Of a stretch of DNA of 64,000 bases, positions 2 through 64,000 are shown piece after piece. The DNA lies in NCBI GenBank assembly GCA_963692915.1, contig OY843584.1:1056001-1120000 (forward strand), given 5' to 3'. The position numbers and the translations under genes are program-made. Numbering within the stretch: the first letter of the stretch is position 1; each line of letters begins with the position of its first letter. This DNA is from Cenarchaeum sp. (lineage in GTDB: Archaea; Thermoproteota; Nitrososphaeria; Nitrososphaerales; Nitrosopumilaceae). The notes beneath the pieces are model-generated. The model worked only from the letters and a program-made list of their open reading frames with translations. It was not told the origin of the DNA and did no database searches.

Positions 2-3000
2 AGTGACTGCTGCCGGTATGGTGACCGTCCATATGCCGGCCTCTATGTCCAAGTCGGTGATGGAGCTTATTGTCACAGTCGTCGCGCCGTCGGTGTGGTC
101 AGCCGTGCGCGAGACTGCCTCCGTTGTTGGTGGCTTTACGCTCAGCGTTGTCGGCACGTTGTAGACGTTCTCGTCGAACGTTATGACTATCGAGTTGCCC
201 GAGAACACGGCCTCTGCCGTTGGCGCGGCGCGGTCGATTATCGGTGAGGTCTGCGTGTCGGCGTTGACGGTGCGCGTCGAGCCCGTGTCGCCCGTGAGCG
301 TCGCGGCAAACGTGAGCCTGCCGTCGATGTTCGGCGCTACGGCTGTCGTCTCTACCTCGTATGGCGCCCGCCACTCGTTGGTGTCGCCGACGCGCACCAT
401 GTTGCCGCCTGTTGCCGTCCTGCCCACAAAGGTGACCCTCGGGGCAGTCTCGACGTTCTCGTCGAGCGTGAGCGAGAGGATGATCGTGTCGCCTGCGCGC
501 GCGTGGTTCTGGTACGGCGAGGGCCTCTCATTGCCGGTGCGCTGGTCCTGCACCTCGTAGTCGACTGTCGCCATTGGGGCATCCTCGCGCTCGGCCATGA
601 CGCTAGCCGTGGCGCGCGCGTTGTCAGACGCGTCGAGGACTGTTGCCGGTATGTCGACTGTCCACGTGCCTATTGCTATCGGCTCAGTTAGGGCTATCCT
701 CACAGTCGCCTCACCGGTGGTGTGGCTTGGGGTCTCGGTCGTGGTCGTGGGCGTGGGCGTAGTCGGCGCCGTGACGTCCATTGTCGTCACGCCTTTGACA
801 GGCTCGCTGAACGTTATGACGATAGAGTTGCCCGAGAATGCCGCCGTGGCAGTCGGCGCGACGCCGTCATCGGCGACTTGCTGGCTGCCAGACCCCAGGG
901 CGTTGCGGCCGGCGTCGACTATGCCCGTGCCCGTGTACTCTACTCTTGGCGCAAATGACGTGTCTTCGATCGCCGTGTACGTGAGCGTCACTGTGGTGGG
1001 CATCCCTGACGGGGTCGCGAGAACCGCACTAGAGATCGCCGCCGTCGTCGTGCCATCACTTGCTGACCACATGCCGGCGCCCGTGACTGCCTCAGACAGC
1101 GTGACTGTGAGCGTCGTGGTGGATGTGGTCTCTGCAGACGTGATGGTAGGTATCGTGGCGTCGACTGACACGTGTGGGCTGCCAAAGGTTTCTGTAAGGG
1201 TCATTCCGAGTTGGTTGCCGGCCCTGTCACTGATGGTCAGGGCGAACGTGATCGAGCCGTTGGGGTCACCTTCCGCGATCGTGCGGATGTACGCGTACGT
1301 GTGAACGGGGACGGTGATGCCGGTACCGGTGTCGGTGAACGTCTCCATGCCGGTGAACACTACCGAGTCGGCGTTCACGGTGCTGTCGCCCGTCAGGCCA
1401 AAGAGCGCAATGTCAGTATTCACCGTGTCGAGGGGCTCCTCTGTCTTCACGATGATGCGAACCTGGTCGCCGATGCCGGCAAGTGTGACAGTTTCCGAGT
1501 CTGATGACTCGCCGGCGAGCCTCACGCTTGAGGTAATCTCGCGCAGCATCGGCGCCGTACTGTCTATGGTCGGCAGGCTCGGGCTCAGCGTGCCCACGTG
1601 CCCGGTCATCGCCGTTATCTCGCCTTCGTTTGAGCTGCCGTCGGTGGCCGTTATCGTAAAGGTCAGCACGCCCTCGTCCGTCATGGCCGACACGTCGAGG
1701 TCATAGCGCCACGTCGTCGCGTCGCCGTCTCCCCTGTCGTCCATATTCTCGTCAGTCTCGCCGGCCACGTCTATGGTCGGCGTGCTAGAGGCGTCCTCGT
1801 CGAGCGTGATGTCCAGGCGGATCGTGTCGTCGATGCCGGCAAAGGTCGCATACTGGCCGGTCTTTGCCGGGTTTGAGTCAGGTGCGCCGTCGTGGACTGT
1901 GATTGTTATCTCTGTGGCCCGCGGGGCAGTCATGTCGGCCTTTTCGACGTCGATGTCGTCAGTGTCTGCGTCACCGTCGGGGTTGTCTATGGGCACGTAC
2001 GCGTTGGTCGCCGTGTCCGTGACTGCTGGATCGATGACTACCTTGTAGTCGGTATGCGTGTCGGTGGTGGCGAGCCTGATCGTGACCGTCGAGGTCTCAG
2101 AGTCCGAGGAGCCGGCCGTGTAGAGGACTCCGGCCGTGCCGTGTGTCGTGTCGAGCGCCAGCGCATCCGAGCGCGTCGTGGGCTCGGTGAACCCGCGCAC
2201 CTCAAAGTTGGCCCCCACTGCCGTCGACGCGAGAAGGCCCTCGCTGAACGTGAGCGTTATCTCGCGGTTTGTCTCAGCGTATGTCGCAGTTATCACGAGC
2301 GGCGCGACTTCGTCAGTCGCCGTGACGTGCGGGGAGGTTGTGGCCGGCACGTTGGCCGATGCGCCAGAGGCCGTTATCGTTCCCATCCCGTCATACTGCA
2401 CGATCGGCGTGACGCCTGTGCCCATGGTTGGGTAGACGAGCGTTATCGTGTTGGTAGGCGTGATCGACACGTCTCCCATGTCCAGCGTCGCCGACGGCGT
2501 CGAGGCGGCCGTGGTGTGGGAGCCGGCCCGCAGCGAGGTTGGCTGCACCGAGCCCAGCATCCAGTCCGAGACGCTCGTCTCGCCGAGGGCCAGTGTGCCG
2601 CTGAACGTGACTGTTGTCGTCTCGCGGCTCGTAGTCTGCGCAGACATCACAGTCGGCGTGGAGATCGTCCCTGCCGTTGCGGGCGCAGTGACCGTGAACG
2701 ACGCCGCCGCTGCCAGCTCGTTTGGCGTGCTAGAGTTGTCAGTCACCGATGTCGGAACCGCCAGCGTGTACCTCGTGTTGGCCACCGCATCGCTTGTCGT
2801 GACGTGGACCGTGTGTGATCCCGAGGACTCCATGTTTGCCGCAGACGTGACAGTGAGGGTTGTGGAGCCGCCCAGCTCCGTGACGGTCAGGCCGGACACG
2901 ACAGAGTCAGTGTCAAGGGGCTCGCTGACCGAGAGGACTATGGTCGAGAGGTTCCTGAACGCCGCCGAGGAGACCGTTGGCGCGGTGAGGTCGAGTATGG

Positions 3001-6000
3001 CGGTGACCGAGCGGCTCCCGGAGGCGACTGCGTTCATTGCCACGTCTGTGACTGCGGCGTCGATGGTGACTGCGTACATGGCAGACTGTGTAGGCGCGGT
3101 GTCCAGGGTAAGGGTCACGTGCGGGGTCGGCGCCGAGGAGGTCGGCGCGACATAGGCGGCGGTGAACGCCACGGCGTTGCTGTTGCTCACGAGATCAAAG
3201 TTCTCCGTCAAGACGGTGTTGCTGTCGAGTGCCTCGCTGAAGGGTATCCATATGCGGTAGACTGTCGGGTCAGTCGCGTCGCGCCTGAACTCTGTGCCGT
3301 CAATGACAGTCGGCGGCGTCTCGTCCCGTAATGAGCGCGTCGCGCTCGTATCCGTGGCCGCGAGGGGGTTGTTTGCGTCATCGAACAGGCCGAACGTGTT
3401 TGAGCCAACTGTCGTGCTGGGGAGCGTGACTGTGTGGGCCGTGTCGAGCGCCGAGTCCGAGGCCAGCGTGAGCGTGATTGTCGAGGTGGTGGCCTGCTCG
3501 GCATAGACGGCCGAGCCGGTGAGGGTCACGGTGCCGCTGGGGATCGTTGTGGGGTAGCTGGCAATGTCTGTCGGAACCTCCGCCAGGCTCACATCACCAG
3601 AGCGTTCTCCTGGCCCACGAGCCGTCATGTGTTCGCTGAACGTGATGGTGAGCTCGTCCGTATCGGTGAACATGGAGGACATGACCGTGGGGGCGGTCTT
3701 GTCGATGCGCACGCGGTATCCCGCGTTCGGCACAGCGACGCCGTCACCGTCAGTCGCCCCTGTCGTGAGATCCTCGTGCGTGAACGTCGCGGTGTTGCCT
3801 GCGACATCGCGCACCGTGAGCTCGAACGTGACGAGACCCTCCGGCGATCCAGCTCCGACACGGTGTGAATAGTTGTAATACCCGAGACCGGCGTCGACGG
3901 CGCGCTGACCCGTCACCTCAAAGGCCGTGTCGGGGAAGAACCTGATGTCGGCGGGCGCAACGGTGTCGCCGGCGCCACCGGTAATACTGTCACCCAAGAT
4001 GGGCCTGTTATCCACGTAGAGGGTCTCGGTGGGATCTATGCGCACCCACACGCCTTCAGTCGGATGACTGCTCAGGCCGGCCGGCGCAATTGGCACTCTT
4101 GGATCCAGACTGTTCTCCCTTGTTTGCATAGTCAGCGAGTCGCCGGCGTCGAGCGCCGGCGGCACGCCGTCAGCCGCCTCGGTGTCTCTCGTGTCGACCT
4201 CAGAGGTGCCCTCGGTGAGGAACCCGCCGGTCGGCGCGGTGCCGGGCTTTGCGTACGCGACTTGTGGCATTGCGCCAGTCGAGGAGATCGACTCGTGCGT
4301 GATGAGGAGCTGCGTGGCAGTCGAGGCGTCCGGTATGTCCGCAGTAGAGCCCACCGTGGCCGCAGTCGACGTCGCGGCGCCGCTGAGCGCAGTCGCCACG
4401 CTCGATATGGCCAGCTCCGTGTCCGCCGCGCCGGCAATGTCGTTCTCGGTGACAGTCCAGTCCCTCACGTCGAGCGCACCCGAGAGAGCGCCGCCGGTAA
4501 AGGTCACGAGCGTCGTCGTGAGGCTCGCAGTGGAGGCCGTGAAGGGGACCACCACGACGGGCGCCGTGTACGTCGCAGTGTCAGACTCGGTGGAGAGAAC
4601 CCTGTTTGCCGTCGGCATGACGCGGTCGTCGATCGTGTCGGCGACATTGACGGTGTATGGCCTGTCAAGCACAGCGTTTGAGCCCAGCTCTAGCGTGTAC
4701 GTCGCCGGAGCCGTAAAGTCCACGTTGTCCACGTCAAGGCTGCCTCCCGGGGCAGTCACGGTCCAGCCTGTCGTCGTTGACGAGACGTCAGTCACTTCCT
4801 CGCTAAACGTCACCGTTATCATGTCAGCGTCGGTGAACGTGGCCGACTCTATCGTCGGTGACGCCTTGTCGACCAGTGCCGTGGCAGTGGAGGGGACGCC
4901 TGGCGCTCCAAACGGCTGGCCATTCGAGTCGGTTAGCCCGCGACCACTCGCCGGCCTATAGGTGAAGGCCGAGGCGGTGAGGTCGGTGCCGCTGCCGTCA
5001 TCGAGGTCGGTGCTTGGGCGCGGCTCGGCGAACCTGACAAAGAGCTCGTCAGCCGGACCGAAACTGAAAACGCCATCCCTGGCGGTCCCACCGTCCGCAG
5101 TCGAGAGCGACATGACAGTCGAGCCTGTGAACTCCCAGTCCCCGTCTGCCGTAGTGCCGCTGACGTTCTCGCTGAACTCTATCCTTGCCGTGCTCGCAGA
5201 CGTGAGCTCGGCGCTAAACGTCGGCGGAGTCGTGTACGTCAAAGTTGGATCAGTTCCCCCATACGTGTTGCCGGCGCTGTCAGTAATCGTGTCTGGCAGA
5301 TGCACCGTGTATGTCCCCAGTTTGGTCAGGGTGATGGCGATATCGACAGAGGTGCCGGCAACAGGCGCCGTGTATGTGGACCTCACCATGTCTGGGTCTG
5401 TTATGTCAATCCCAGAACTAGATGACACCATACGCTCGCTGAATATTAATGTGAAGATGTTGTGGCCAACACTCGTGGACTCAATTGTCGGCGGTGTGCG
5501 GTCGATCGTCGGCGGTGGGCGGAATCCGAGGCTAGTGACCCCAATCTCACGCTCGTTACCCGTGTCGCTCGTGATCGTGGCCTCGAACGCGAACGCGCCG
5601 TCGGCCAGGTTAGAGTTGTCCGTCTTGGTCTCCACCGTGTACGTCGCGATCCACGTGAACGCGTTGGCACCCTCCATCATCTCCACACTAGCGGACTCGG
5701 CATGGTTCACAAAGACGATTGTCGGTGTTATACTGACTTCTTCGCTGAGCGTGAAGGTGACTACTATCTGGTCGCCTACGCGGGCATCGTCGTTGAACGA
5801 TCCCGTCCGTGGGGCATTATCGGCATCCAAGACCCTGTACATTGCTGTGCCAGTAGGCGCAGCCACGACCACCGTCTCTACCACGGTGTTGGCCGCAACA
5901 GGGGTGCCGTTGGTGTCCGTGACAGTCTGCGGTATGGCGATGCTCCACGTCCCGGCAGCATTGCCCTCTGTGCGCGTCACTGTGGCCGTGGCCTGGCCGT

Positions 6001-9000
6001 CAGTGTGGGTGAACGTCAGCGTTTCGGTCGTTGCGTCTGGTTGCGTGGCCACTAGTGTCCCCACGCCGTTTACCGGCTCGCTAAACGTTATCGTCAGCAC
6101 CCTGCCGGCAAAGGCCGCCATGGCAGTCGGTGGCACCCTGTCGTCCAGGGCCGTGGCTGCGACCTTGCCGGCGACCGTCTCAAACGCGTTGGCGGCCCTA
6201 TCGACTAGCGCGCTGCCGACGCTCGGCGTGTACGTGACGCCCGAGGCAGTCAGGCCGCCGAGGTCGGTGCCAGGGCGCGCGGCGGCGAGATTGAGGTAGA
6301 GCTCGTTGTCTGCGGCGAGGGTCGCCAGGATGTCGGCCCCGCCGTCCGTAAGCGAGATCGACGCGACAGTCGAGCCGGCGACTGCCCACTCGCCAAACGC
6401 CGTCGAGCCGTCGACGTTCTCGCTAAAGGTGATCTTTACCTTGCTAGGCGACGTGAGGCTTGCGCTGAACGTCGGCGCGTCAGAGTCGACCACGACGTTC
6501 GTGCCCGTCACGTCGGCCTGCGTGAGCGTCTCCTCGTTGCCTTCACTGTCGCGTATCGTCAGGGTAAACGCAAGTGGGCCGCTGTCATCCAAGTCGACTA
6601 TCTCGCGCACGTACGAGTACGCGTTGCCCGTCTCAGTGTCCACCGAGTCGGCGTCAGTCGACGTCCCAAAGAGCGCAATGTCGCCGACGGCCGTGACTAG
6701 CGGCTCGCTGGCCACGACGTTGACGCGAACGTCGTCGTCGATTCCGGCCGTGGTGACTGTCAGCGAGTCAGACGACGCGTCCTCGAGCCTCACGCTCGTA
6801 GTCACCGTCGCCGTCGGCGGCGCCTTGTCGGCCAGAGCCGTGGCCTGCAGGGCGGTGTTGGCCGTGCCGAGGTCGTTGTCCGCGTCGTCCTCTATCGCGC
6901 CCTGGGTCGGCGCCGTGTATGTGACGTCCGCCTCGGTCAGCCCGCCAAGGTCGGTGCCTGGGCGCGACGCGGCGAGAGTGAGGACGACCTCCGTGGCCGA
7001 GGACGGTGCTGTCGGCGCGACCGCCGTGACTGTCGAGCCGGCCACTGCCCACTCGCCAGGCGCCGTCGTGCCGTTGACGTTCTCGTCAAAGACGATCCTC
7101 ACGGAGCTCGCCGAGATCAGCTCGGCCTCAAACGTCGGCGGCGCGCCGTCGGCCGCCATGGTGTCGCGCGTGGCGACGTCCGAGGCGCCCTCGGTGAGGA
7201 ACCTGTCAGCCGGCGCGGTGCTGGGCTTTGTGTACGCGACTTGCGGCGTTGCGCCAGTCGAGGAGATCGACTCGTGCGTGATGAGGAGCTGCGTGGCAGT
7301 CGAGGCGTCCGGTATGTCCGCAGTAGAGCCCACCGTGGCCGCAGTCGACGTCGCGGCGCCGCTGAGCGCAGTCGCCACGCTCGATATGGCCAGCGCCACG
7401 TTGTCTGCCGCGTCGGCCGCGTCGTTCTCGGTGACCGTCCAGTCCCTCACGTCGAGCGTGCCCCCGAGCGCGAGGCCGCCGTTGAACGTGACGAGCGTCG
7501 TCGTGAGGCTCGCCGTGGCGGCCGTGAAGGGGACATACGTGTACGTCGCGCTCGTCGTGGCGCCGTCGTCTATCCCGTTGGCCGGCGTGGCGAGGTCGGC
7601 GATGTCGTCGGCCAGGTTGATCGTGTACATGCCAGGCGGGGCGGCCGCGAAGGTGAGCGTGTACTCGTCGCCTTCGTGGTCCACGTCGAGCACGGACAGG
7701 CCGTCCACAGACCATCCGGCTGATGAACTAAAGTCGGTTCCGCCGGTCACGTCCTCGCTGAACGTCACGATGATCTTGTTGGCGCCGTCAAACTCGGCTC
7801 TGAACGTCGGCGTCACCCTGTCGGCTATCGCCGTGGCCTGCAGGGCGGTGTTGGCCGTGCCGAGGTCGTTGCCCCTGTCGTCCTCTATTGCCCCCTGGGT
7901 CGGCGCCGTGTACGTGACGCCCGAGGCGGGCAGGCCGACAAGGTCGGTGCTTGGGCGCGGCGCGGCGAGCGCGATAAAGAGTTCCCTGGCATCGGCGAGC
8001 GTCACTGCGGTGGTCTCGTCCGCCCCGTCCTCTGTCAGCGAGAGCGACTCGGGGACCGAGCCGGCCACTGCCCACTCGCCAAACACCGTCGTGCCGTCGA
8101 CGTTCTCGTCAAAGACGATCCTCACTGTGCTAACCGACGTGAGCTCGGCACTAAAGGTCGGCACGTCAGAGTCGACTGCCACGTTCGTGCCCGCCATCAG
8201 GTCGGCCTGCGTGAGCGTCACCGTGTTGCCCGCATTGTCGCGTATCGTCAGGGTGAACATGAGATCGCCGTTGGCGTCCGAGGCGGCTATCGTGCGCACG
8301 TACGTGTACGCGTTGGACGCGCCGGCGGCCACCGAGGTGGCGGGAGTCGACGTCCCAAAGAGCGCAATGTCGCTGACTGCCGTGACGAGCGGCTCGTTTG
8401 CCGTCACGGTGACGCGAACGCCGTCTCCGATGCCGGCGATCGTGCCCGATGCCGCGTCGGTCAGCTCTCCGGCGAGCCTCACGGCCACAGTTACGGTCGC
8501 CGTCGGCGCCGTGACGTCGACTGTCACGCGTGCCGCTGCCGTGGCGTGCGTCACCGGCATGGCCACCTCGTTGCCGGCACTGTCGCGGAACGTGATGCTA
8601 AACTCGATCTCGCCGTCGGCGTCAGTCGCCTGTATTGTGCGCTCGTACGCGTTCCCGTAGAGTCCACCGTTGGCGTATACCCTGTCGGCGTCCACTGCGG
8701 TCGCGCCGGTTCGGCCAAAGAGCGCAATGTCGCCTGTATCCGCGACGATGAACTCGCTTGCCACAAGCGTAACGAGAAGCCTGTCGCCGATGCCGGCCAC
8801 GGTGCCCGATGGCTCGTCGGCAGTCGAGGCTCCAAACCTGACGCTCGTGGTGACTGACGTCGCCGTCGGGCGCGTGACGTCTATGGACGGCTGGTGCACA
8901 GTCAGCGTGCCCGAGTGGCCGCTCGTCGGCGTTATCGTGCCCGCAGTCGTCCCGTCAGTCACCCCTATCGTAAAGTCCAGCGATGTCGTCTCAGTCGTAC

Positions 9001-12000
9001 CTGTTGACACGGCGAGGTCATAGTGCCATGTCGTCGCGTCGCTGCCGCCCGTGTTCACCATGGACTGACCCGTGAGCCCGCCGATGTCTATTGTCGGCGT
9101 GCCGTTGGCGTCCTTGTCAAGCGTGACCGCGACGCGGATCGTGTCGTCAATGCCGGCAAAGCCCGCAGCGGTGCCCGTCTTTGCCGCAACCGTGGCCGGA
9201 TCGCCGTCGTGGACTGTGACTAGTATCGCAGTCGCCACGGGCGCCGTGCTGCGCGTGGCCACGACGCCGCCGGCGGCGTAGGGAAGGTATGCGGCGTTGG
9301 CGAGCCCTGTGCTCGGCGTGACAGTGTGAACCGCCGAGATGGCGTCACCGGCGAGGTTGAGCGTGACTGTCCTTTCGCCTGCAGTGTATTCGACGCCGGA
9401 CAGCGCGACAGTCTCGGCGATGCTGTCAGCGTCGCCGCCGTCAGGCGTCGTCACCGCAAAGTTGGCGCCCACGACTGTCGCAGGCGCGAGGGCGTCGCTG
9501 AACGTCAGGTCAATGACCCTCGGGCCGGTGATCGCAGCGGTGAACGTCGGCGCAGTCGTGTCATACGTTATGGTCACCGTGGCCGTGGCGACATAGTCGT
9601 TGCCGGCGAGGTCCTCTATGGCGCCTCCGCTGATCCCCAGCGTGTACTCTGTCCCGTCGTTGGCGGCCGTGAGGCTAGACGTCACGGGGATCGTTATCGT
9701 CCTGTCATCGACTGTCGCCGTGCCGAGGGTGACTGTCGGCGTGCCGGCCAGCGTGAACGTCAGCCCGTCTGGCAGCGTCGGCTCTATCGCCTCGCTAAAG
9801 AGCATCGTAACGCTCTGGCCGTCGGCGGCAAACCGTGCTTGGACCAGCGTCGGTGCCACATTGTCGTTTCGCACGCCTGTCAGCTCGGCGCTTTGGGCCA
9901 CTCTCACGCCGTTGGCGTCCTCTATGGCAGTCGACAGGTCCAGCGTGTAGGAGCCCTGTGCGGCGTTGGAGACCAGCGTGAACACCAGGCGCGAGTTGGC
10001 CACGCCACCGGGCGGGGTGGAGAGTGAGGGGCTGCCGTTGTCCACTATGGTCGTCTGCGTGCCCTCGAGCGTGGCCGTCAGCGTCTGGGTGGTCGGCGCC
10101 GCCATGGCCTCGCCAAAGTCAACCTCGACTGTGTTGGCCGACGTAAAGCGACCCGCATTCGCAACCGGCGTGACCCCGTCGTCTGCCGTACGCTCCAGTG
10201 GCGTGCTGACGGTGCCCATGACGAGGCCCACGCGGTCGGCCAGCGTTCCGGTACCCGACTCAGACGGCCTGGTGTACGAGACTGTCGGCTCGGCGCCCGT
10301 CGAGTCGAGCTCATCGTGGATGAGGGTCAGTTGTCTACCAAGATTCAGGGTGATCTCGGGCGACGAGGTGATGAGGCCGGCGTCCGTTAGGTCGAGAATT
10401 CCCGTGATGGGTTTCATCGAGCTCCCGTCAGAGATCGACCAGTCGCCCATGCGGGCGGTGCCCGTGACGTCCTCGGTGAACGTTACCCTCGTGTTCGTCA
10501 GGGAGCGCGTGAGGGCAGTAAAGTCCGGCGCCGTCGTGTCCGGCTCTGGCTGTACCGAGGTTCCGTCGGCCAGCGCGTTGTTGTTCGCGTCGACTATCGA
10601 GCCCATCCTGTCGGCGTGGTCAGCGCTAAACGTGAGCCTGATCGAAGTCTCACGAAGATTATCGAATGTGATGGTTGTTCGGCTGGATCTTCCCGGACTT
10701 GGCACCATCGTTGCCGTGTCCTCGTCCAGGTTGAGGGTATAGCCGATGGCCCGCGTATTGCTGCTGCTGTTAGGGGGTGAATACTCCCCAGGCGTGATCG
10801 CAAACGTGCCCTGAATAACTCTGCCACGGCTAATGCCGAAGCCGGTGAACGTCCAGTCCGCACCTGTCGGCTCGTCCTTGCCGTCGGCAAGCCTGACCGG
10901 CTCGGAGAAGCTCACGATGTAGGTGAGGTCAAACTCATCTTCGTTAGACCCCTCGGCGGTGAACGTCGGCGCGACGCCATCAGTGGCCTCGGTGTCGCGC
11001 GTGGCGACGGCAGATGTGCCCTCGGCGAGGAACCCGCCTGCCGGCTCGGTGCCGGGCTTTGTGTACGCGACTTGGGGCGTTGCGCCAGTCGAGGAGATCG
11101 GCTCGTGCGTGATGAGTAGCTGCGTGATGGCAGTGCTCGACAGGAGCGTCTGCGTGACTGCGTCACCGGCCCCCGTCGTGGTCTCGGGTGTCGCCTCGAC
11201 CGACGTCTGCCCCGCCTCGACCACAGTGGCCACGCTCGATATGGCCAGCTCCACGTTGTCCGCAGAATCGGTCGCGTCGTCCTCGGTGACAGTCCAGTCG
11301 CCCACGTTGAGCGTGCCCTCGAGCGCGTCGCCGTTAAACGTGACGAGCGTCGTCGTGAGGCTCGCAGTGGCGGCCATGAATGGGATAGACGGCGTGTACG
11401 TCGCGCTCGTCGTCGCGTCCACGGCGAGCTGGTTGCGTGCGTCATCGGTTATGTTGTCGGGGAGCGCCACTGTGTGGATCGTGTCCGTCGCCGCGGCCGA
11501 GGCCAGCGTGAGCGTGACTGTCGAGGTGGTGGCCTGCTCGGCATAGTCGGCCGTGCCGGTGAGGGGCACGGACTCGCCGCCGGTGAGCGTTACGGGGTAC
11601 CCGCCAATGTCTGTCGGAACCGCCTCTCCATAGCGCAATACAACAAGATCATCACCATCATCACTATCGACCGGTATAAACGCCGCCAGGTGCTCGCTGA
11701 ACGTGATGACGAGCTTGTTCGGCTCGGTGAACTCGGAGGTCCTGACCGTCGGGGCGATGCCGTCGGATACGGACACGGCCTCTAGCGCCATGTTGACGGT
11801 GCCCATGACGTTGGACGCAGAGTCGGCCAGCGTTCCTGCCTCCGACTCGGACGGCCTCGTGTACGAGACTTCCGGCGTTGCGCCAGTCGAGTCGAGATCC
11901 GCGTGGACTAGGTACAGCTCCGACTCGCCCGTGAGCCTGAGCGTGGGCGAGGCGGTGCCGGTGGGGGCGGAGACGACGCCGGTGGCATCCGTGCCGGAGA

Positions 12001-48000: not shown

Positions 48001-51000
48001 TCACGGTGTTGGCGTCATCGGCCGTGGTGCCAGGATCGTCGGTCTTGCCGTCGAGAAGTATCGTCGGCGGCTCTACAGCATCCTGGTTGAGCGTGACTGT
48101 GAGGCGTATCGTGTCACCGGCGCGCGCATAGTTCGAGTACGGCGCTGCGCGCGCCGAGAGCGCCCCCATCGAGTCGGCCTCGAGGACAGTGTACGAGATC
48201 GCCGTCGCGAGCGGAACCATCGTGTCGACTGTCACGGTGCCCACGAGGTCAGCTGCGGGGCTGTTGGATGCCGGAGAGGCATCACCAATATCCGTGGTGG
48301 CCCTGAGCGTGTACTGCGCGTCAGCTGCGGCGAGCGGAAGCGTGAGCGCGACTATCTCGGGGGAGCCGGTGACCGGGGCCACGGTGACGCCGGCCACGGG
48401 CGTCGTCCTGCCAGTCGACGTCGTGTCACCGGCCTCTAGGTAGACTGTCGTGCCAGAGACCGTGGAGGCGTCAAGTGCCTCGCTGAACGTGGCGTGTATC
48501 GTTCGCGTCGGCAGTTGCTGAAGCACGGACACGAGCGTCGGCGGCACGCTGTCGGCTACCATGACTGGGCTCTGCGGCGTGATTGCCGCAAGCTCGCGGT
48601 CGATCCTGTCAATCACGCGTCCGGCCGCAGAGGTGCCCAGGGCGTACTCTAGTGTCGGCGTTGCGCCAGTCGGGAGCGGCGCGTGCGACATTGTCATCAC
48701 TGTGCCCGATATGGAGACAGAGCCTGTCGCCGCCTGCGCACCGGCATTCTTTATGGCCCAGTGGCCTGCGCGCTCGGCGGCGGTCCCGCCGTTAAACCTC
48801 ACTATCTCGTTGAATTCCACCGTTGTCGTAGTCGTCGACGTCATTGTGGCCGAGACGACTGTTGGGGGGTTGTGGTCCACTATTGGCCACAGTGCGGCAA
48901 AGCGCGCCTCATTAATGTCATTATTCCCACTGTCGTTGACACATGCGTGAGCTCGCGTGTTTGCGTCCCTGGTGCAGTCGGCGCCTCGCGTGAACGTTGC
49001 CTCGTTGCCCACCGGAATGTCAACCGTTGTAAACACTGGCACTAGCTGGCCCTCCGGGATGCCCGTGGTCACAGTCAGCGTGTGTGTCCAGTTGTCGTTA
49101 GCAGCATCATAGGAAAGTGGACGTGATGTGTCATCATCAAAGTATTTGACCTTCGCAGACGCTATGGCGTATGGCGGATCAGCGCACTGTGGCTCTGGTA
49201 GACGGCAATCCGGATCATCTGGGCCATTTGGCGTGTATGACGGTATCTCCGGCCGCACTGTTACGGTGTCTCCGGCCTTTACGAGCAGTGTGCCATAACC
49301 CACTGACGGGTCTGCGGCCGGAAGGCGCGCCCTGCTCACGTCAAGATTGACGGTGTATGCCTCCGGCCCAGCCCTGTCTAGCATGCGCTCATTGGGCACA
49401 ACTAGCCTCTCTGCGCCCACCCGCAGCGCATTGCCGGCCACGTCAGTCAGCGCAGTGTCCGTGTACTGGAGGGTGGCGCCATGGTCTCGTTCGCGCTTGC
49501 CCTCATAGTAGCCGATCTGCGTGGAGGAGAGCAGGGCGTGTACAATGACAATCTCACTTGACGGGGATGATGGTGGTATAGAGAGCGTCAGCGCGGCGGG
49601 TTTATCAGGCAGTGAGAGTCCCTGGACACTTGGAAAAGTGCTGGACGAGGACTCCTCGTCACGGATAATCCACGAGTTGAGTCTCGTCGAGCCCGCCATG
49701 GGCTCGCTAAACTGCACGAGCATCGAGGTCGGGCCCGTTATGTGGACCACGCCGATGACCGGCCGCACCCTGTCAGTCGCCTCGGTGCCGCCGTCGTCGA
49801 CGTCAGAGCCGCCGGTGCCGCCCTCCTTGAGATCGCCGTCGGCATACGCGACGCGCGGCGTAGCGCCAGTCGAGGAGAGCGCGCCGTGCGTGATGAGCAG
49901 GCGCGTGGCAGTCGAGGCGTCCGGTATGGCAATCGGGGAGCCCGCCGTGGCCGCAGTAGCCGTCGCGACGCCGCCGGCCGAGGCAGTCGCCACTCTCGAT
50001 GGCGTGAGCACCACGTCAGCCGAGCCGGTGTCGTTGTCGGTGACCGTCCAGTCCGTCACGTCGAGCGTGCCGGCGAGCGTGCCGCCGTGAAAGGTCACGA
50101 GCGTCGTCGTGAGGCTCCTCGTGGCGGCCTCGAATGTGGCAGGCGCCGCGTACGTCGCGCTCGCCGTGGCGCCCGTGGCAAACGCGTTGCCGGCGAGGTC
50201 GGCCAGGCCCGCCGGCAGCGTGACGGTGTGCTCGACCTCGGCCGCGTCGGCGGCGAGCGTGAGGGTGATCGTGCGGGCCGTCGCGTCATAGGCGACGGGC
50301 TTCACCGGCGGGCTGGCGCTCGGGTTCGCCGTGGCCAGCGGGACGGCGTCGGGGCTGCCGTCCGAGTCGGCGTCTGGCACCGTCACGCCGAACGTATAGC
50401 CCTCCACCTGCGCCTGCGTGTTGAGGAGCGCCTCGCCTGCCGTGATGACGAGCGTCCTGGCCGCCGTGAACTCCGCAGTCGCCGTCGGCGCAGTCAGGTC
50501 TATGGTCGGCACGGTGACGGTGACTCCGGTGTCCAGGCCGGCGGCCTGCATGATGGGCGACGTGTTGCCCGCCGCGTCAGCCGCCGCGATCGTGAACGTA
50601 TATGCCGCCTCAGTCCAGGAGGACATCACGAGCAGGTCGTGGTGCCACGTCGTGGCCAGCGCGTCGCCGTTGTCGCCCATCGCGGTTCCCGCCGCCGTCC
50701 GGCCGGGCACCTCTATCGTCGGCGTGCCGGCGGCGTTCTCGTTGAGCGTCAGTATCAGGCGGATCGTGTCCCCGTTGCTTGCGCTCAGCGCGCTGTCACC
50801 GGTCTTTAGCGTGGCGGGAGCCGGCGTGCCGTCGTACACCTCGAAGGCTATCGAGCTTGCGACCGGCGCAGTCATGTCCGGCGCCGTGTACGTCGCGTCT
50901 GCCTCATCGCCGGCCACTATCGTGTTGGGCGTCGCGGCCTCGTCCATGATCGTGCCGGGCGCGCTTATCGTGTACTCTGTGCCGTCAGTCGCGCCGGAGA

Positions 51001-54000
51001 CGGTGAGCGTGTACGTGGTGGCGTCGCCGACGACAAGGGCCGCGTTCGACACCGTGAGGCCGCCGTCCGCCGTCCATCCCGTGGTGACCTCGGTCACGTC
51101 CTCGGTGAACGTGACTTCGATCGTGTCAGCCGCCGTGAACTCGGCGGACTCTATGGACGGCCTGACCTTGTCGGCGGCCTCGACCGGGTTTGCGCCCGTC
51201 GGGCGCAGCGCGACGTCGTCGGGGTCGAGCAGCCCGCCGGCGGCGTCCGTGTACGCGACGTCCGGCGTCGCGTCGGCGGCCTGCGCGCTGGCCAGCGTGA
51301 GCGTGATCGTGTCGGTGGCCGACGTTATCGTGATCGCGGCGTCGCCGACCGTCGTCAGCAGGCCTGCCGTGACGGAGTCGGGCTGCTGGCCGGCCACCGT
51401 CCACGCCATGCGCGCGGTGCTGCCGTCAAGATCATCGGAGAACTCGACGGTGACTGACGTCGGCGTGACAAGCTCCGCGAGCGTTATCGTCGGCGGCGCG
51501 TTGTACGTCGCCGTCTCGGTCTCGCCGGCCACTATCGTGTTGGGCACCGTGGCCACGTCCGCGATCGTGCCGGGCGCGTTCACCGTGTACGACCTGCCGT
51601 CCACGGCGTTGCCGTCCAGCTCGAGCGTGTACGTGCTGCCCGAGTGATCCGCGGTGTCCACGTCGAGGCTGCCCACCGTGTCGGTCAGCGACCAGCCCGC
51701 GGTGACCTCGGTCACCGGCTCGGTGAAGGTGACGGTGATCATGTTGGGCTCCGTGAACGTGGCAGACTCGATGGACGGGGCGATCCCGTCGGCGGCCTCG
51801 ACCGGGTTTGCGCCCGTCGGGCGCAGCGCGACGTCGTTGGGGTCGAGCAGCCCGCCGGCGGCGTCCGTGTACGCGACGTCCGGCGTCGCGTCGGCGGCCT
51901 GCGCGCTGGCCAGCGTGAGCGTGATCGTGTCGGTGGCCGACGTTATAGTGATCGCGGCGTCGCCGGCCGTCGTCAGCAGGCCTGCCGTGACGGAGTCGGG
52001 CCGCTGGTCGGCCACCGTCCACGCCGTGCGCGCGGTGCTGCCGTCGAGCGCCACGGAGAACGTGACGGTGACTGACGTCGGCGTGTCGAGCGTGGCGGCC
52101 ACTATCACCGGCTGCGCGCGCGTGGCCGCAACGCCGGCGTCGGCGTACGGCAGGTATGCGGCGTTGGCCAGCCGCGACGTCGGCGTGACGGTGTGGGTAG
52201 CCGAGGACGCGTCTTCGGCTAGCGTGAGCGTGACGGTGAGTGCGTTGGCGTCATAGGCCACGGGGTCAGTCGAGGCCAGCGCGACGGCGTCAGGCAGGGC
52301 GTCTGCGTCGATGCCGTCAGGCACCGTCACGCCAAAGTTGCCGGCCACCACGGTCTCTGGCGCCAGCGCGTCATCAAAGGTGAGGACAATTGTGCGCGCG
52401 CCGGTGATCTTGGCCGTGAACGTCGGTGCCGTGGTGTCGTACGTCACGGCGGGGAGACTCGCGGGGTTCTCGACGTACGCGTTGCTGCTTGGGTCTATTA
52501 TGCTGCCCTCGCCCATGATCCCCAGCGTGTACATTGTCCCGTCGGGGGAGCTCGAGGCGCCGGGCGCCACCGTGAACGTTACCGTGTTACCTGCGACGGT
52601 CACCGTGCCGGCCGTGAGTGCAGTGGCTCCCGCGCTGCCCGTCAGGACAAAGGTGACCCCTCCAGGGGTCAGCGCGGCCAGACTCTCGCTAAAGGTCATC
52701 CTCACGCTCGCGCCGCCGAGTATAAACTCGGCGCGATCCACCACAGGGGGCGCACGATCGGTGACGGACCTGGCCATCAAAGCCTCGCCCTTGCCCACGA
52801 GGGGGGTGCCCCCTGCGTTAGAGAGCACGTTGGCGCCCTCTGACGGACGAGTGTACGACACGGTACTCCTGTTAATCGCAGTCAGGTCGCCGGAGGAGCC
52901 GTCGGGGTCAGTCAGGCCCGTGGAGGGGCGCGGCTGCTCAAACGTGAGGAGGACAGAGCGCGCCGTCTCAAGCATGGTCGGCACGACTGTCCTTACAGTC
53001 GAGCCGCCCACTTTCCACTCGCCAGGCGCCGTCGTGCCGCTGACGGACCTGCTAAAGTCGATCCTCATGGTGCTCGCCGACGTGAGCACGGCGTCGATTG
53101 CGGGGAGCGGCACGTACTCTACGGTGCCCGGCACGCGCACGGCGGTGAGGGCATCATTTCCGAGCGAGTCCGTCGTTCCGGTCACGCGCAGTATGAACGC
53201 GCTGCCTGTGGCCACACCGCCGGCCAGCGGGAACCTCAGGCCCGTGTCCGGGCCATAACCCTCGTCCTCCGGGTCAAAGGAGGCACTGGCGGTGCCCGTC
53301 TGGGCAACAGTGCCGGAGCTGAGGGAGATCTCCAGGCCCTCGTCGCCCTGCAACACGACGGCATCATCAAAGAGGATCTCGGCTATGAACGCGCTTGTAA
53401 AGCGGCCCACCTGGGGCTTCGGCTCGATGCCGTCAGCGGCGCGGACGGGGGTGTCACCCGTCGAGAGCATGGTGTTGCCAGACGCGTCGGCCAGGCGCAC
53501 CTGCCCGGCATCGAGCGCAGTCGAGGCGTCGTACGCAAAGTCCGGCGTCGAGGCCGAGGAGGCAAGCGTGGGATGGTTGATGTTCACGCTGCCCGTAGAC
53601 GACGCGGTGAGCAGGGTCGCGGTGGCCGAGTCAATGCCATTGGCTGTCATCTTTGTGCCGTCCTGGCCCTCCGTGAACGACCAGTCAACTGCGCGTATCG
53701 TGCCGTCGACAGGCTCGCTAAAGGTGATCGTCGTGGCGTCCAGCTCCAGCGTCTTGGCCGTGAACGTCGGCGGCGCCTTGTCAGATACTGCCGTGGCCGT
53801 GGCCATCTCGCCGGCAGCAGCAATGTCGTTGCCAGAGGCGTCTGTGATCGTGTTAGACACAGTACCAGGGACGGTCGCGGGGCGCGTATAGACCACGTTC
53901 GCCGGCGTGATCGCCACGAGCGGGCCGGTGCCATCAGGGTCGGCCAGTGCCGTGCCCACGCGCGAGGCTGACAGCGTGAGGACGATCTCCTCGACAGAGG

Positions 54001-57000
54001 ACGGCGCGGATGGCGTGACTGTGCTGACCGTCAAGCCGGCGACTCTCCACTCATCAGGTGCTGTCACGCCGTTGACAGGCTCGCCAAAGTCGATCGTAAC
54101 GGTGCTCGCAGACGTGAGGCTTGCGGTGAACGCCGGTCCGATCGTGTCCGTCAGCGGGAGCGTGACCGCAACGCCGGCGCCGCCGTACGGCAGGTATGCG
54201 GCGTTGGTCAGCAGCGACGTCGGCGTGATCGTGTGGGCCACGCCGCGCGTCGCATCACCGGCGAGCAGGAGCGTGACTGTGAGCGCATCTGCGTCATAGG
54301 TGACAGCGCCTGTTGAGGCCAGCGCGACGCTGACGGGGGAGCCGCCCTGCGTAGAGTTGGGCACCGTCACGCCAAAGTTGCCGGCCACGACTGTCCTCTG
54401 CGCGAGCAGCTCGTTAAAGGTGAGCACGATGGTGCGATCGCCGGAGAACGCCGCGCGGAACGTCGGCGGCGTCGTGTCGTACGTCGCGCTCACCGAATCC
54501 TCAAACGCGTTGCCGTTCACGTCCTCTATGGTGCCCCCGCCGATCGTTAGCGCGTAAAGAGTCCCGTCATCAGCACTCGAGACGCTAGACGCCAGCGGGA
54601 GCGTTATCGTGCTGCCCGAAGCCGTCACCACGCCGACTGTGGGAATCGGCGCTCCGGTCACCACGCTGCTCAGCGCAAAGGTGAGCCCCGAGGGCAGCGT
54701 GGCTAGCGTCTCGGTAAAGGTCAGCGTCATGCCGTTGCCGTCAGTCGCAAAGACTGCGCGATCCAGCCTTGGGTTGGCCTCGTCGGTCACTGCCGTGGAC
54801 ATGGCCCTCGAGCCGGCGGCGGCAAGGTCGTTGCCGGAGAGGTCCGTGATCGTGTTAGACGCAGTCGTCGTGCCGGTCGCGGGGCGCGTATAGACCACGC
54901 TCGTCGCGCTGAGCGCAGTCAGGCCGCTGGCGCCATCGGGGTCAGACAGGTCAGTCGTCGCGCGCTCCGTGGCTAGCGTGAGGGTGATCTCCCTGACCGA
55001 GGACGGCGAGGACGTCGAGGACGGCTCGACCGTGCTGACTGCCGAGCCGGCGACGATCCACTCTTCAGGGGCGGTGGTGCCGCGGACGTCCTCGTCAAAC
55101 CTGATCGTCACGGTGTCCGCAGACGTGAGCGTCGCGCTGAACGTCGGCGCAGTCGTGTCTGGCGTGTATGTCGTCTCTGACACGACGGCGACGAGCGCGT
55201 TGCCGGCCAGGTCGGTGATCACACTCGTCAGCTGCACGGCCCACGACCCTGCCAAGTTTGCCATGGCATCCACGGTGAGGACGGCGCCCTCGGCGATAGC
55301 ACCCCTATTCTGCTGCTGGACGCCTGACGTAAGCGGCGGGGCGACATTCACGGTGAACGTGTCCGGCGTCACGATCACCTCGTTGAACGTGATCACAATC
55401 GAGGTGCCCCTAAAGAACGCCGGCATTGCCGCATCAAGCGTCGGTGCGGTTCGGTCCACGGTGGGCAGCTCGACTGTGATGTCTCCGGTGTGGCCGTCCT
55501 CGGCCGTTATCTGTCCGTCGATGCCGGCTGCATCCTCGACATCTATGGTAAAGTCAAATGGCGCGACAGACGACGTCTCGGGAGTCGTGGCCGACACGGC
55601 GAGGTCATAGTGCCACGTGCTCGCGTCGCTGCCGCCCGTGTTCACCATGGACTGGTCCGTGAGCCCGCCGACGTCGATCTCCGGCGTGCCAGAGGCATCC
55701 TCGCCGAGCGTGAGCAGGAGGCGGATCGTGTCACCGGCAGCAGCTTGGAGCGCCGAGGCGCCGGACTTTAGCGTGGACAGCTCCAGCGTGTCACCCGTGC
55801 CCGAGCCGTCCGTGTCGGTGTCATCATACACCTCAAAGGATATCTCAGTAGCCCTCGGCGGCGCGTCATAGGTGCCCGTGGCAGCCGCGTCGGCGTACGC
55901 GTTGCCGGCCAGGTCAGTCAGCGTGGATGGCAGTGCCACAGAGTATGCTCCCGGCGCGTATGTGGCATCGAGCACGGTGACGACCGCACCGACTGGCATG
56001 GTGTTTCTGGCCATCGCATCAGACGCGCCTGACGGCGGCGTGACAGTCAGCGTGGTCGGAGAGACGACTGTCTCGCTGAACGTGAGGACGATCGAGGTGC
56101 CCGAGAAGGCAGTCGTCGTGAGCGTCGGCGCCGTGCGGTCTATGGTCGGCACGCTGAACGTGATGCCGCCGGCAAGCATGGTATCCTGCGTTATGGGCAC
56201 AGGGTTGTTCCCCACTGTGATCGAGAACGTGAACGGCGCAGTGGACGACGTCTCGACTGTCGTGGCGCCCACGATAATGTCGTGGTGCCACGTCGAGGCG
56301 TCAGCGTCACCGGCGTTGCCCATCGGCGTCGCAGTCGGCGTCCTGCCCATGCCGGGCACCGTCACTGACGGCGCGGTGGCGACGTCCTTGTCGAGCGTGA
56401 GCGCGAGGCGGATCGTGTTGTCGGCCATCGCGTGGAGCGCCGAGGCGCCGGACTTTATCGTTAACAGGTTCAGCGTGTCGGCCGTTCCGGAGCCGTCCGT
56501 GTCAGTGTCGCCGTACACCGCAAAGGAGATCACAGTCGCCATCGGCAGCGAGTCGTACTCGGCGCCTCCAGGCACGGCCGTGTTGGCAGTTATGATGTTC
56601 ATCGCCGCGTCGCGTATATCGCTCAGGACCAGGGCGTACGTGCCATCGACCACATGGTCGGCCAGCGTGAAGCGCAGGCCGGTGTCCGGCCCGTGCACGG
56701 CGCCGGGCGGATCAAAGGGGTTGGGGGCCATCTCCGTGGATTCTGGCGCCGTGCCCGTGGTGGCCTCGATGCCGTTGAGGGTGACCGACAGGGGCTTGTC
56801 GGTGGGCCTTATGACGGCCTCGCTAAAGATGACCTCGACGGTGTTCGACGCCGTAAAGCTGCCCTCCACAGGGACCGGCCCCACGCCGTCGGCGGCCACG
56901 ACGGGGCTGTCGAGCGTGGAGCCCACGAGGTTGCCGGCCTTGTCGGCCAGAAGCGCCTGCCCCATGGCCATCTCCTGATCGGTCAGGGTCGGCTGCACGT

Positions 57001-64000: not shown

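Follow-up and report, generated by a model that had tools for sequence, protein, structure and literature searches.

We have found that a 64,000-nucleotide stretch of the genome of Cenarchaeum sp. (contig OY843584.1, positions 1,056,001 to 1,120,000; hereafter the window) forms the central part of a single, real gene carried by an ammonia-oxidizing archaeon. The gene lies on the minus strand and encodes a single chain of 25,609 residues that consists almost purely of immunoglobulin (Ig)-like modules and ends in a cassette of 594 residues. As a whole, the product is best explained as a Sec-exported, tethered adhesive Ig fiber that could be shed at a predicted self-cleaved junction, a reading to which we assign a probability of roughly 0.6.

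The original prediction for this stretch had held that one minus-strand frame is stop-free across the window, that it belongs to a titin-scale single protein, and that neither terminus is present. All three statements were borne out. Translation of 2..64000 gave 0 stops in 21,333 codons, with the frame open at both ends. In the genome contig (window, G000:C1:1056001-1120000) the stop-to-stop frame comprises 25,697 codons (1045958..1123051), of which 929 lie upstream of the window (L004:1-2787, minus) and 3,347 downstream (L005:9960-20000, minus), so that both termini are located just beyond its edges. Extension along the contig, which the prediction had proposed, reached an ATG with a signal peptide at one end and a stop with a C-terminal cassette at the other. 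Reading from the upstream end, a plausible leader first follows an ATG at codon 88 of the stop-to-stop frame (L004:2787, genome 1122787), the protein beginning MAQLSHSRLSSTGIAMLAAITLLAGLGGSDAAAQ, and the stop is found at genome 1045958-1045960 (L005:9957-9959). The whole product has a mass of 2.60 MDa and an isoelectric point (pI) of 4.05, and its 25,609 residues contain a single leader and a single C-terminal cassette. At 76.8 kb, the gene takes up 4.7% of the genome and is by far its longest frame, the runner-up having 5,232 codons. Over the whole gene the other five frames contain 212 to 1,556 stops, and the GC content of codon positions 1, 2 and 3 is 60%, 56% and 81%, the high value at the third position (GC3) being the mark of a coding sequence. 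Neither chance nor composition can thus account for the open frame. The gene had also been called invisible to the track of open reading frames (ORFs). That is true of the list made for the window, which lacks the gene because the window cuts off both of its ends, but it is a window-edge artefact and not a property of the gene. The part of the gene that falls in the window is as follows.

2..64000, minus strand: central portion of the gene, residues 930-22,262, 21,333 codons of 25,609 (open frame, extension in the genome, orthologue in sister genome G001).

The host was identified as an ammonia-oxidizing archaeon with a small genome. The archaeal small-subunit rRNA model RF01959 scored 1,460 bits versus 1,101 bits for the bacterial model, and archaeal amoA was detected at 389 bits (PF12942 Archaeal_AmoA), a family that none of the 14 control genomes matched. 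The genome is a single contig of 1,644,826 bp without any N, is 99.86% complete and has a GC content of 59.4%.

Ig-like modules had been noted wherever the frame was checked, and this was upheld by Pfam matches, by a census with self-trained profiles and by a structural model. All seven pieces into which the protein was divided matched Pfam Big_5 (PF13205), six of them above the curated gathering cut-off of 23.6 bits (75.8-98.2 bits) and the N-terminal piece slightly under it (22.9 bits). Of the other families that the prediction had named, SWM_repeat (PF13753) reached its cut-off of 27 bits in one module (62.4 bits; residues 3175-3254 of the piece window:49001-64000) and fell short in a second (23.4 bits), and Big_13 appeared below threshold only. 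With a single such module above cut-off, the chain cannot be classed overall as an SWM-repeat protein. Weak CopC-type Ig matches were also returned. Single modules tested alone had no significant Pfam match, and profiles were iterated on the protein itself because individual modules are too diverged for Pfam. The first self-trained profile found 159 modules covering 69% of the protein, with remaining gaps of mostly 105-135 amino acids (aa), and a second profile trained on these gaps revealed a second module type (B). The merged census comprises 214 modules, 153 of type A (median length 113 aa) and 61 of type B (112 aa), which together account for 93.1% of the chain; the segments left over, of 105, 144, 84 and 60 aa, give room for about three more, for a total of about 217 Ig-like modules. 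Type B had no significant match in Pfam, only sub-threshold hints of Big_13 and He_PIG, and four odd segments of the chain had no Pfam match either. Wholly inside the window are 132 type A and 49 type B modules, 181 in all, very close to the ~180 domains first estimated. The modules named in this analysis are the following.

9566..9826, minus strand: type A example (Big_5-like Ig domain, ~113 aa), the best Big_5 stretch of the piece window:7001-22000 and the seed of the self-trained profile.
50501..50827, minus strand: type B example (~112 aa, second Ig-like type), from the second profile and its consensus.
50126..51172, minus strand: A-B-A module triplet, 349 aa, used for structure prediction with AlphaFold2.
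54239..54478, minus strand: the single SWM_repeat module.

The triplet was modeled with an alignment of 33 A-B-A triplets from the window. The resulting AlphaFold2 model is all-beta and consists of three beta-sandwiches, type B included, with a predicted local distance difference test score (pLDDT) of 94.8 and a predicted template modeling score (pTM) of 0.82. Its best Foldseek matches, with expectation (E) values of 2e-7 to 3e-6, were tandem Ig arrays, namely those of the surface-layer (S-layer) proteins SbsC and SbsB, of the titin I-band, of the giant adhesin SiiE and of NCAM. The modules are strongly diverged from one another, with a median pairwise identity of 23% among type A and 19% among type B; for paralogous 300-aa tiles the median is 37% and the highest value 85%. 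The N-terminus resembles a Sec-type signal peptide, which is conserved in G001, and no 19-residue Kyte-Doolittle window after the leader exceeds 1.9 anywhere in the protein. Thr (15.8%) and Ala (14.5%) are abundant, and Asp plus Glu (12.2%) far outnumber Lys plus Arg (3.9%), for a net charge of about -2,100. There are only 12 cysteines, six of which are in the C-terminal cassette. The other six form two small clusters at residues 5861-5949 (window 48941-49207) and 24588-24606 (L005), and these two segments, set among otherwise Cys-free Ig modules, had no Pfam match.

The last 594 residues comprise, in this order, a putative GAIN/ZU5-like domain, a linker that is rich in Gly and contains CxxC, a V-set Ig-like domain and a pair of amphipathic helices. 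This cassette had no match in Pfam at E<=10 and none in NCBIfam at E<=1, the latter searched with both termini. A model of the tail built on a 52-sequence alignment had a pLDDT of 79, with values >90 for residues ~250-440, and was compared with 48,161 chains using VIA-align. Residues 252-420 matched V-set Ig domains (Z about 8), residues 7-237 the CD97 GAIN domain (Z 8.0, 151 aligned residues, root-mean-square deviation 4.0; second entry Z 7.7), and residues 33-238 ankyrin ZU5 domains (Z 7.7-7.9, 15-16% identity). Foldseek with the whole tail model returned only antibody single-chain variable fragments at template modeling scores of 0.11-0.15, which is generic Ig similarity. The nearest clusters in the protein atlas are unnamed, and the nearest one with a Pfam name is ZU5 (score 0.84), which is a lead only.

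The GAIN-like reading is strengthened by a conserved motif that adds to the weak fold match. The sequence WTNHFTQFG occupies model residues 225-233, with H228-F229-T230 at the turn between strands E221-229 and E231-235. Residues W225, T226, H228, T230, G233, C186 and C214 are invariant in 16/16 copies from the genus, down to 36% identity. Among the 52 database homologues with >=250 aa upstream of the conserved core of the tail (query residues ~240-430), 30 have HF[ST] and three have HLT, HMT or HYS at this site, and the remaining 19 have unrelated upstream domains and no junction domain. CD97 is cleaved at L530|S531. The aligned range of CD97 extends 7 residues beyond this site, to 538, and T230 likewise precedes model residue 237 by 7.

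A comparable arrangement has recently been described for microbial GAIN (MAIN) domains. According to the available part of that preprint, MAIN domains are widespread in bacteria and archaea and are without strong sequence similarity to eukaryotic GAIN; they are cleaved at a conserved HX(S/T), placed at HF|S by Edman sequencing, and the fragments stay associated (Brogan & Rudner 2026, bioRxiv 10.64898/2026.05.12.724683). The proteins are ordered as signal peptide, adhesion or enzymatic domains, MAIN and surface anchor, and their release under shear has been proposed (same source). In the present protein the signal peptide, the Ig ectodomain and the place of the putative junction domain follow this order, and the V-set Ig-like domain with its helices occupies the position expected of the anchor. 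The motif, taken with the tail model, makes a MAIN-type self-cleaving junction the probable identity of the domain found here. It would cleave itself between F25244 and T25245, with the fragments remaining bound non-covalently, and the computed products of this predicted cut are a 2.56-MDa fiber and a 39.8-kDa C-terminal fragment.

The gene is conserved in another species of the same genus (G001), in which the orthologue has the same start (MAQLSQSRL...) and a total of ~25,518 codons. It is present there as frames of 24,633 and 1,061 codons that overlap by 265 nt, that is, with one frameshift, the overlap being at G001:C1:1250631-1250895 (L016). The flanks are syntenic at 87-95% nucleotide identity, both ends of the gene are collinear (residues 1-4300 and 20,901-24,500, the latter at 93% identity), and the anchored collinear blocks are 87-93% identical. 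Block permutation between the two orthologues was considered and rejected, the confident anchors being monotonic. The ratio of nonsynonymous to synonymous substitution (dN/dS; Nei-Gojobori) was computed for three collinear module blocks, with values of 0.47, 0.66 and 0.62, for the final 1,000 codons (0.35) and for the final 594 residues (0.28); the neighboring Topo VI-A gene gave 0.085. A stop would result from just 1.8% of point changes, and with a G000-G001 divergence of ~7% this leads to an expectation of ~100 stops across the two lineages under neutrality; none was seen. The other three genomes of the genus consist of 130-220 contigs each. Public contigs from four runs of three studies covered 29-30 of 30 bins of a 20-kb stretch of the gene.

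The cassette defines a wider family. The whole 594-residue region was found in 18 of 61 related genomes, including 5/5 of the genus, and the junction domain alone as query matched 10 of 251 genomes of the family, including all five of the genus. In the genome that holds the window, the cassette recurs in three paralogues, which are 2,961-3,494 codons long. In G001, further cassette-ending frames have 16,125, 14,652, 11,156 and 6,067 codons, and the tails of the 14,652- and 16,125-codon frames are 78% and 69% identical to the query. Cassette loci on G001:C1 are located at 383718-385478, 606405-608138, 82843-83883 and 1545667-1547205, and these four frames together with the orthologue make up roughly a tenth of its 2.0-Mb genome. 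The 5,232-codon runner-up frame of the window's own genome (G000:C1:419804-435502, plus strand) had no match to the cassette query.

An exhaustive search for this family found 650 database proteins at E<=1e-3 and 154 at E<=1e-30. Most of these are 400-700 aa long and share only the core, which is C-terminal and located behind a Gly-rich linker and CxxC, and the N-terminal parts in front of it vary (beta-propeller-like repeats, Ig modules, leucine-rich-type repeats). Those with a complete N-terminus carry signal peptides (P0045, P0050). Family members come from thaumarchaeal metagenome-assembled genomes and are named 'hypothetical protein, partial' or 'Ig-like domain-containing protein'. Among the 150 representatives listed from this search there was no protein >6,000 aa, the giant included, and nothing is concluded from this on public annotation; the genome's own 2,957-aa paralogue is present in the sister protein collection (P0003). 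The word-index protein search with the 594-aa tail reaches only 2,970 aa and is thus blind to giants.

Within one of its extra blocks, the G001 orthologue repeats the junction domain, the motif reading WTRHMTQFG at residue 19,753; the window's gene has no such internal copy. Internal MAIN-like copies with an intact WT[RS]HMTQFG were seen at G001:C1:1264977-1265519 (L031) and 590247-590789 (L032), in the middle of the 24,633- and 14,652-codon frames, and more Ig modules come immediately after them. If active, the internal copies would cut the G001 chains into several non-covalently linked pieces.

The idea of an adhesive filament fits these data because of the signal peptide, the lack of any later hydrophobic segment, the matches to titin, SiiE and S-layer proteins, and the MAIN-type C-terminal layout. 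We hypothesize that the N-terminal Sec-type signal peptide exports the single, very acidic 25,609-residue chain, and a secreted single-chain Ig fiber is very likely. An Ig module is ~3.5-4.5 nm long in titin and in bacterial adhesins, and with ~217 modules the chain would extend as a fiber of roughly 0.7-0.9 µm. After cleavage at the junction, the 40-kDa C-terminal fragment would stay on the cell envelope, by analogy with MAIN-domain surface proteins; whether it is the envelope anchor is, on this analogy, an evenly balanced call. The 2.56-MDa Ig fiber would project outward as an adhesive tether, probably to host matrix or neighboring cells, and could be shed under mechanical load. For adhesion to host matrix or neighboring cells as the main role, we put the chances at about even.

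Several observations weigh against this reading. The fold match of the junction domain is weak when taken alone, because best Z values of 7-8 are typical in VIA-align of models without a clear match and Z ~8 is near the noise level. GPS, GAIN, ZU5 and Nup98 had no match in Pfam (E<=10) or NCBIfam (E<=1). When the MAIN-like domain was compared with all PDB sequences as a profile of 16 sequences, there were 0 matches at E<=10. Neither a transmembrane segment nor a sortase-like signal is present in the proposed anchor, nor is any domain known to bind a wall or an S-layer; attachment by the tail is judged only from its position, as the C-terminal 365 residues match no known anchoring domain. No ligand-binding tip domain, lectin-like or other, was found, and the odd segments had no Pfam match. 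The host is likely to be host-associated, as judged from GC composition only: its 59.4% GC resembles the range of sponge-associated relatives, seven of eleven of which have 47-67%, and most free-living marine relatives have 32.5-34.2% (available text of Haber et al. 2021, PMC7848895). In the center of the gene, seven large length differences from G001 separate confidently anchored blocks (about +2,100, -900, +700, -685, -2,600, +3,600 and -2,340 residues); these gains and losses, together with the high dN/dS of 0.5-0.66, indicate that much of the chain is weakly constrained. The differences cancel to 91 residues (0.36%; 25,609 vs ~25,518), and the near-equal lengths may be due to selection on length, to chance or to a fault in an assembly. 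Lastly, the public contigs on the 20-kb stretch are <=1.6 kb long with many short-sided repeat-to-repeat joints, and they attest to presence, not order.

Four alternatives were weighed. The first takes the protein as a polyanionic, S-layer-related fiber or coat that concentrates ammonium and other cations, or serves as a spacer or shield, and is not an adhesin. The pI of 4.05, the Asp plus Glu content of 12.2% vs 3.9% for Lys plus Arg and the net charge of about -2,100 are what such a coat would call for, and SbsC, an S-layer protein, heads the structural matches of the triplet, which also include SbsB and Sap. Sponge ammonia oxidizers have S-layer proteins with a low pI of 3.6-4.9, which are discussed for the acquisition of charged solutes and for adhesion in the available part of Moeller et al. 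2019 (PMC6790972). However, one chain of 0.8 µm that a predicted MAIN-type junction could release suits a tether better than a lattice, and Pfam scans detected no lattice-forming or known S-layer domain. A low pI is usual for marine adhesins as well, and both roles can coexist. We regard a coat in place of an adhesin as unlikely.

The second alternative concerns the cassette, which may be an export or sorting signal instead of an anchor, with the H-F-T site serving to remove it and to free the fiber as an extracellular polymer. Substrates of bacterial type IX secretion, with their Ig-like C-terminal domains, offer a comparison. The core is tag-like, being C-terminal in 650 proteins with unrelated N-terminal parts; the tail has no membrane segment; and proteins without the MAIN-like part still have the core behind a Gly linker. 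Against these points, core proteins with a complete N-terminus carry N-terminal signal peptides too, no dedicated secretion genes flank the giant gene, and in the experimentally studied MAIN proteins the segment past the cleavage site is the anchor (available part of Brogan & Rudner 2026). On balance, a sorting role is distinctly improbable.

The third is an assembly artefact, a chimera or mis-ordered join of shorter paralogous Ig-repeat genes that stays open because the joins are in-frame within homologous modules. Its raw material would be the 2,961-3,494-codon paralogues with the same tail in this genome and the repeats within the gene itself, which are listed here.

33098..34837, minus strand: segmental duplication, one copy; partner at 37256..39028.
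37256..39028, minus strand: segmental duplication, partner copy (tile and DNA comparison).
4270..4415, no strand assigned: longest exact DNA repeat of the whole gene, 146 bp, from an exact k-mer search of the 76.8-kb gene; second copy at 7249-7394.

The duplication is the youngest internal one, with 83-85% aa identity over 300-aa tiles (residues 10651-11230 vs 9254-9844), and at the DNA level its copies, offset by 4,173-4,176 nt, reach 95% identity over 300 nt (families D2 and D5). Tandem Repeats Finder detected no tandem DNA array. The fragmentation of public short-read contigs here, with their many repeat-to-repeat joints, would be expected of a chimera, and a shuffled repeat order in one assembly could produce seven block changes that nearly cancel. 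On the other hand, joined genes should leave internal tails or leaders, but there is only one signal peptide and one cassette. The longest exact repeat is just 146 bp, the genome is a single complete contig, and the sides of the contig joints are 21-37 letters long, which is typical of repeats. In addition, the independent assembly of another species has the same start, the same tail, collinear anchored blocks and a near-equal length. An artefact is a slim prospect. The fourth alternative, a decaying relic kept open by composition and no longer expressed, could draw on the high dN/dS (0.47-0.66), the frameshift in the G001 orthologue and the fact that none of the 12 sequencing runs listed was an RNA run, but is scarcely credible given zero stops in 25.7k codons where roughly 100 would be expected across two lineages if neutral, dN/dS below 1 in all five blocks tested, the stronger constraint on the catalytic-type motif and tail (0.28), and a tested triplet that folds at pLDDT 94.8.

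The tethered adhesive fiber can be set beside several known systems. MAIN proteins such as Bacillus subtilis YfkN share the order predicted for it, namely a signal peptide, a large adhesion ectodomain, a GAIN-like beta-sandwich with H-X-(S/T) at a beta-turn and a C-terminal segment. In the available text of the MAIN survey, Ig-like domains are among the partner domains and archaea are included, its main text contains no mention of Nitroso- or Thaumarchaeota, the mean mass is 158 kDa and HFS dominates in Bacillota. The present protein differs in being ~16 times that mean, in having HFT, in its C-terminal segment (a thaumarchaeal V-set Ig-like domain plus helices in place of a sortase signal, wall-binding or S-layer homology domain), in the absence of detectable sequence similarity and in that its cleavage is predicted. 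ZU5, GPS and Nup98 autopeptidases have been united in one group, and such domains were noted in large bacterial surface proteins, in the available part of Zhang et al. 2012 (PMC3482391). Likeness to the GAIN/ZU5 autopeptidases of adhesion G-protein-coupled receptors (GPCRs) consists in the fold-level match to CD97 GAIN and ankyrin ZU5 and in an H-hydrophobic-S/T motif after a conserved Trp and Cys; unlike them, the present protein has no seven-transmembrane or death-domain partner and no sequence match, and the helical GAIN-A part is reduced to one helix.

As extenders made of a long tandem Ig-like chain, the closest counterparts are Marinomonas MpIBP, a 1.5-MDa protein of >130 domains for symbiotic or community attachment in the sea (available text of PMC5550230), and the 595-kDa Salmonella SiiE (available text of PMC6272769), a fragment of which (2yn5) is among the best triplet matches (E 2e-6, 16% identity). 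Those adhesins are type I secreted and Gram-negative, with RTX C-termini, N-terminal retention modules and ligand-binding tips. In contrast, the present protein is archaeal, has a Sec signal peptide and more diverged repeats (19-23%), and is 1.7 to 4 times larger; no RTX or hemolysin-type domain was matched by Pfam in any of the 7 pieces. Titin likewise has >200 tandem Ig-fold modules with low inter-module identity, and its I-band fragments are among the top triplet matches, but it is eukaryotic, intracellular and kinase-bearing, and the likeness is in fold and architecture only (11-12% identity).

With regard to size, Omnitrophota giants reach 85,804 aa, and the Chlorochromatium epibiont has proteins of 36,805 aa and roughly 25,000 aa (West-Roberts et al. 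2023, bioRxiv 10.1101/2023.11.21.568195; for the epibiont also Kuzyk et al. 2026; available parts of both). West-Roberts et al. 2023 state that proteins >10,000 aa are much less numerous in archaea and occur there mainly in Asgard lineages, and the available parts of that preprint and of the huge-protein survey PMC11573180 do not mention a thaumarchaeal giant. As far as these sources go, the present protein is in the size class of the ~25,000-aa epibiont protein and resembles the bacterial giants as a giant symbiosis or contact protein in a small genome; those are multi-enzymatic or hemagglutinin-like, whereas this one is archaeal and almost purely Ig-like. Full-text literature searches, with subscription papers and supplements outside their scope, found no description of a giant gene in Cenarchaeum, Thaumarchaeota or Nitrosopumilus. 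Giant Ig-repeat adhesins, bacterial proteins this large and the MAIN architecture are thus already known; new are the extreme size for an archaeon, the undescribed C-terminal cassette family and the predicted MAIN-type junction in Nitrososphaeria.

Other features of the stretch and of the gene's surroundings are minor by comparison. The plus strand of the window has 20 antisense ORFs of 304-784 aa (e.g. 6306-8660, 18281-20197 and 42185-44095), the longest of which is given here.

6306..8660, plus strand: longest of the 20 plus-strand antisense ORFs (ORF list).

Two antisense frames have only 212 and 291 stops in 25.6k codons. The antisense ORFs arise because of the 81% GC at third codon positions and are most likely shadows of the GC3-rich coding frame, not genes, although a fragment-based gene caller could mistake them for genes. 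Rfam found no RNA genes in the window. ARAGORN called a 95-nt tRNA-Arg(GCG) at window 14304-14398 (plus strand, antisense), which had no Rfam tRNA match at gathering score and is probably a false positive.

Directly after the stop of the giant gene is a ~3.45-kb segment of 43.7% GC (L005:6377-10073, genome 1042378-1046074) with two N6_N4 DNA methylase genes and a 412-aa ORF without a Pfam match. On either side of it stands a direct repeat of 114 bp (96.5% identical) that corresponds to the final 114 nt of the giant gene, and G001 is without the segment. The segment looks like a restriction-modification island that integrated at the 3' end of the gene and regenerated the reading frame. Topo VI-A is next beyond it. 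ORFs upstream of the giant gene had no Pfam match, and no secretion-system genes, type I secretion included, are adjacent to it.

The most far-reaching version of our hypothesis is that this is the largest archaeal protein yet described, a micrometer-long tether whose total length is under selection and which sits on a thaumarchaeon-specific anchor via a self-cleaved, force-sensitive GAIN-type junction. We consider this version unlikely. If true, it would be an archaeal counterpart of adhesion-GPCR mechanics in a symbiotic ammonia oxidizer, and an archaeon would hold a fixed distance from the host matrix, or release it. The near-equal length of two heavily rearranged orthologues allows for a test of selection on fiber length.

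The cassette constitutes a new C-terminal domain family of 650 database proteins with no Pfam model, and for the attachment of secreted proteins to the envelope of these archaea this tail family is the leading candidate. Surveys of draft genomes will undercount such genes, which appear there as 'hypothetical protein, partial' fragments. If the predicted junction holds, the MAIN architecture would extend to Nitrososphaeria at extreme size. One gene accounts for 4.7% of a 1.64-Mb genome, and the sister species adds three frames of 11,000-16,000 codons with the same tail; gene sizes such as these point to a major, unstudied investment in cell-surface fibers in a globally important nitrifier lineage, one that is probably linked to life inside a host.

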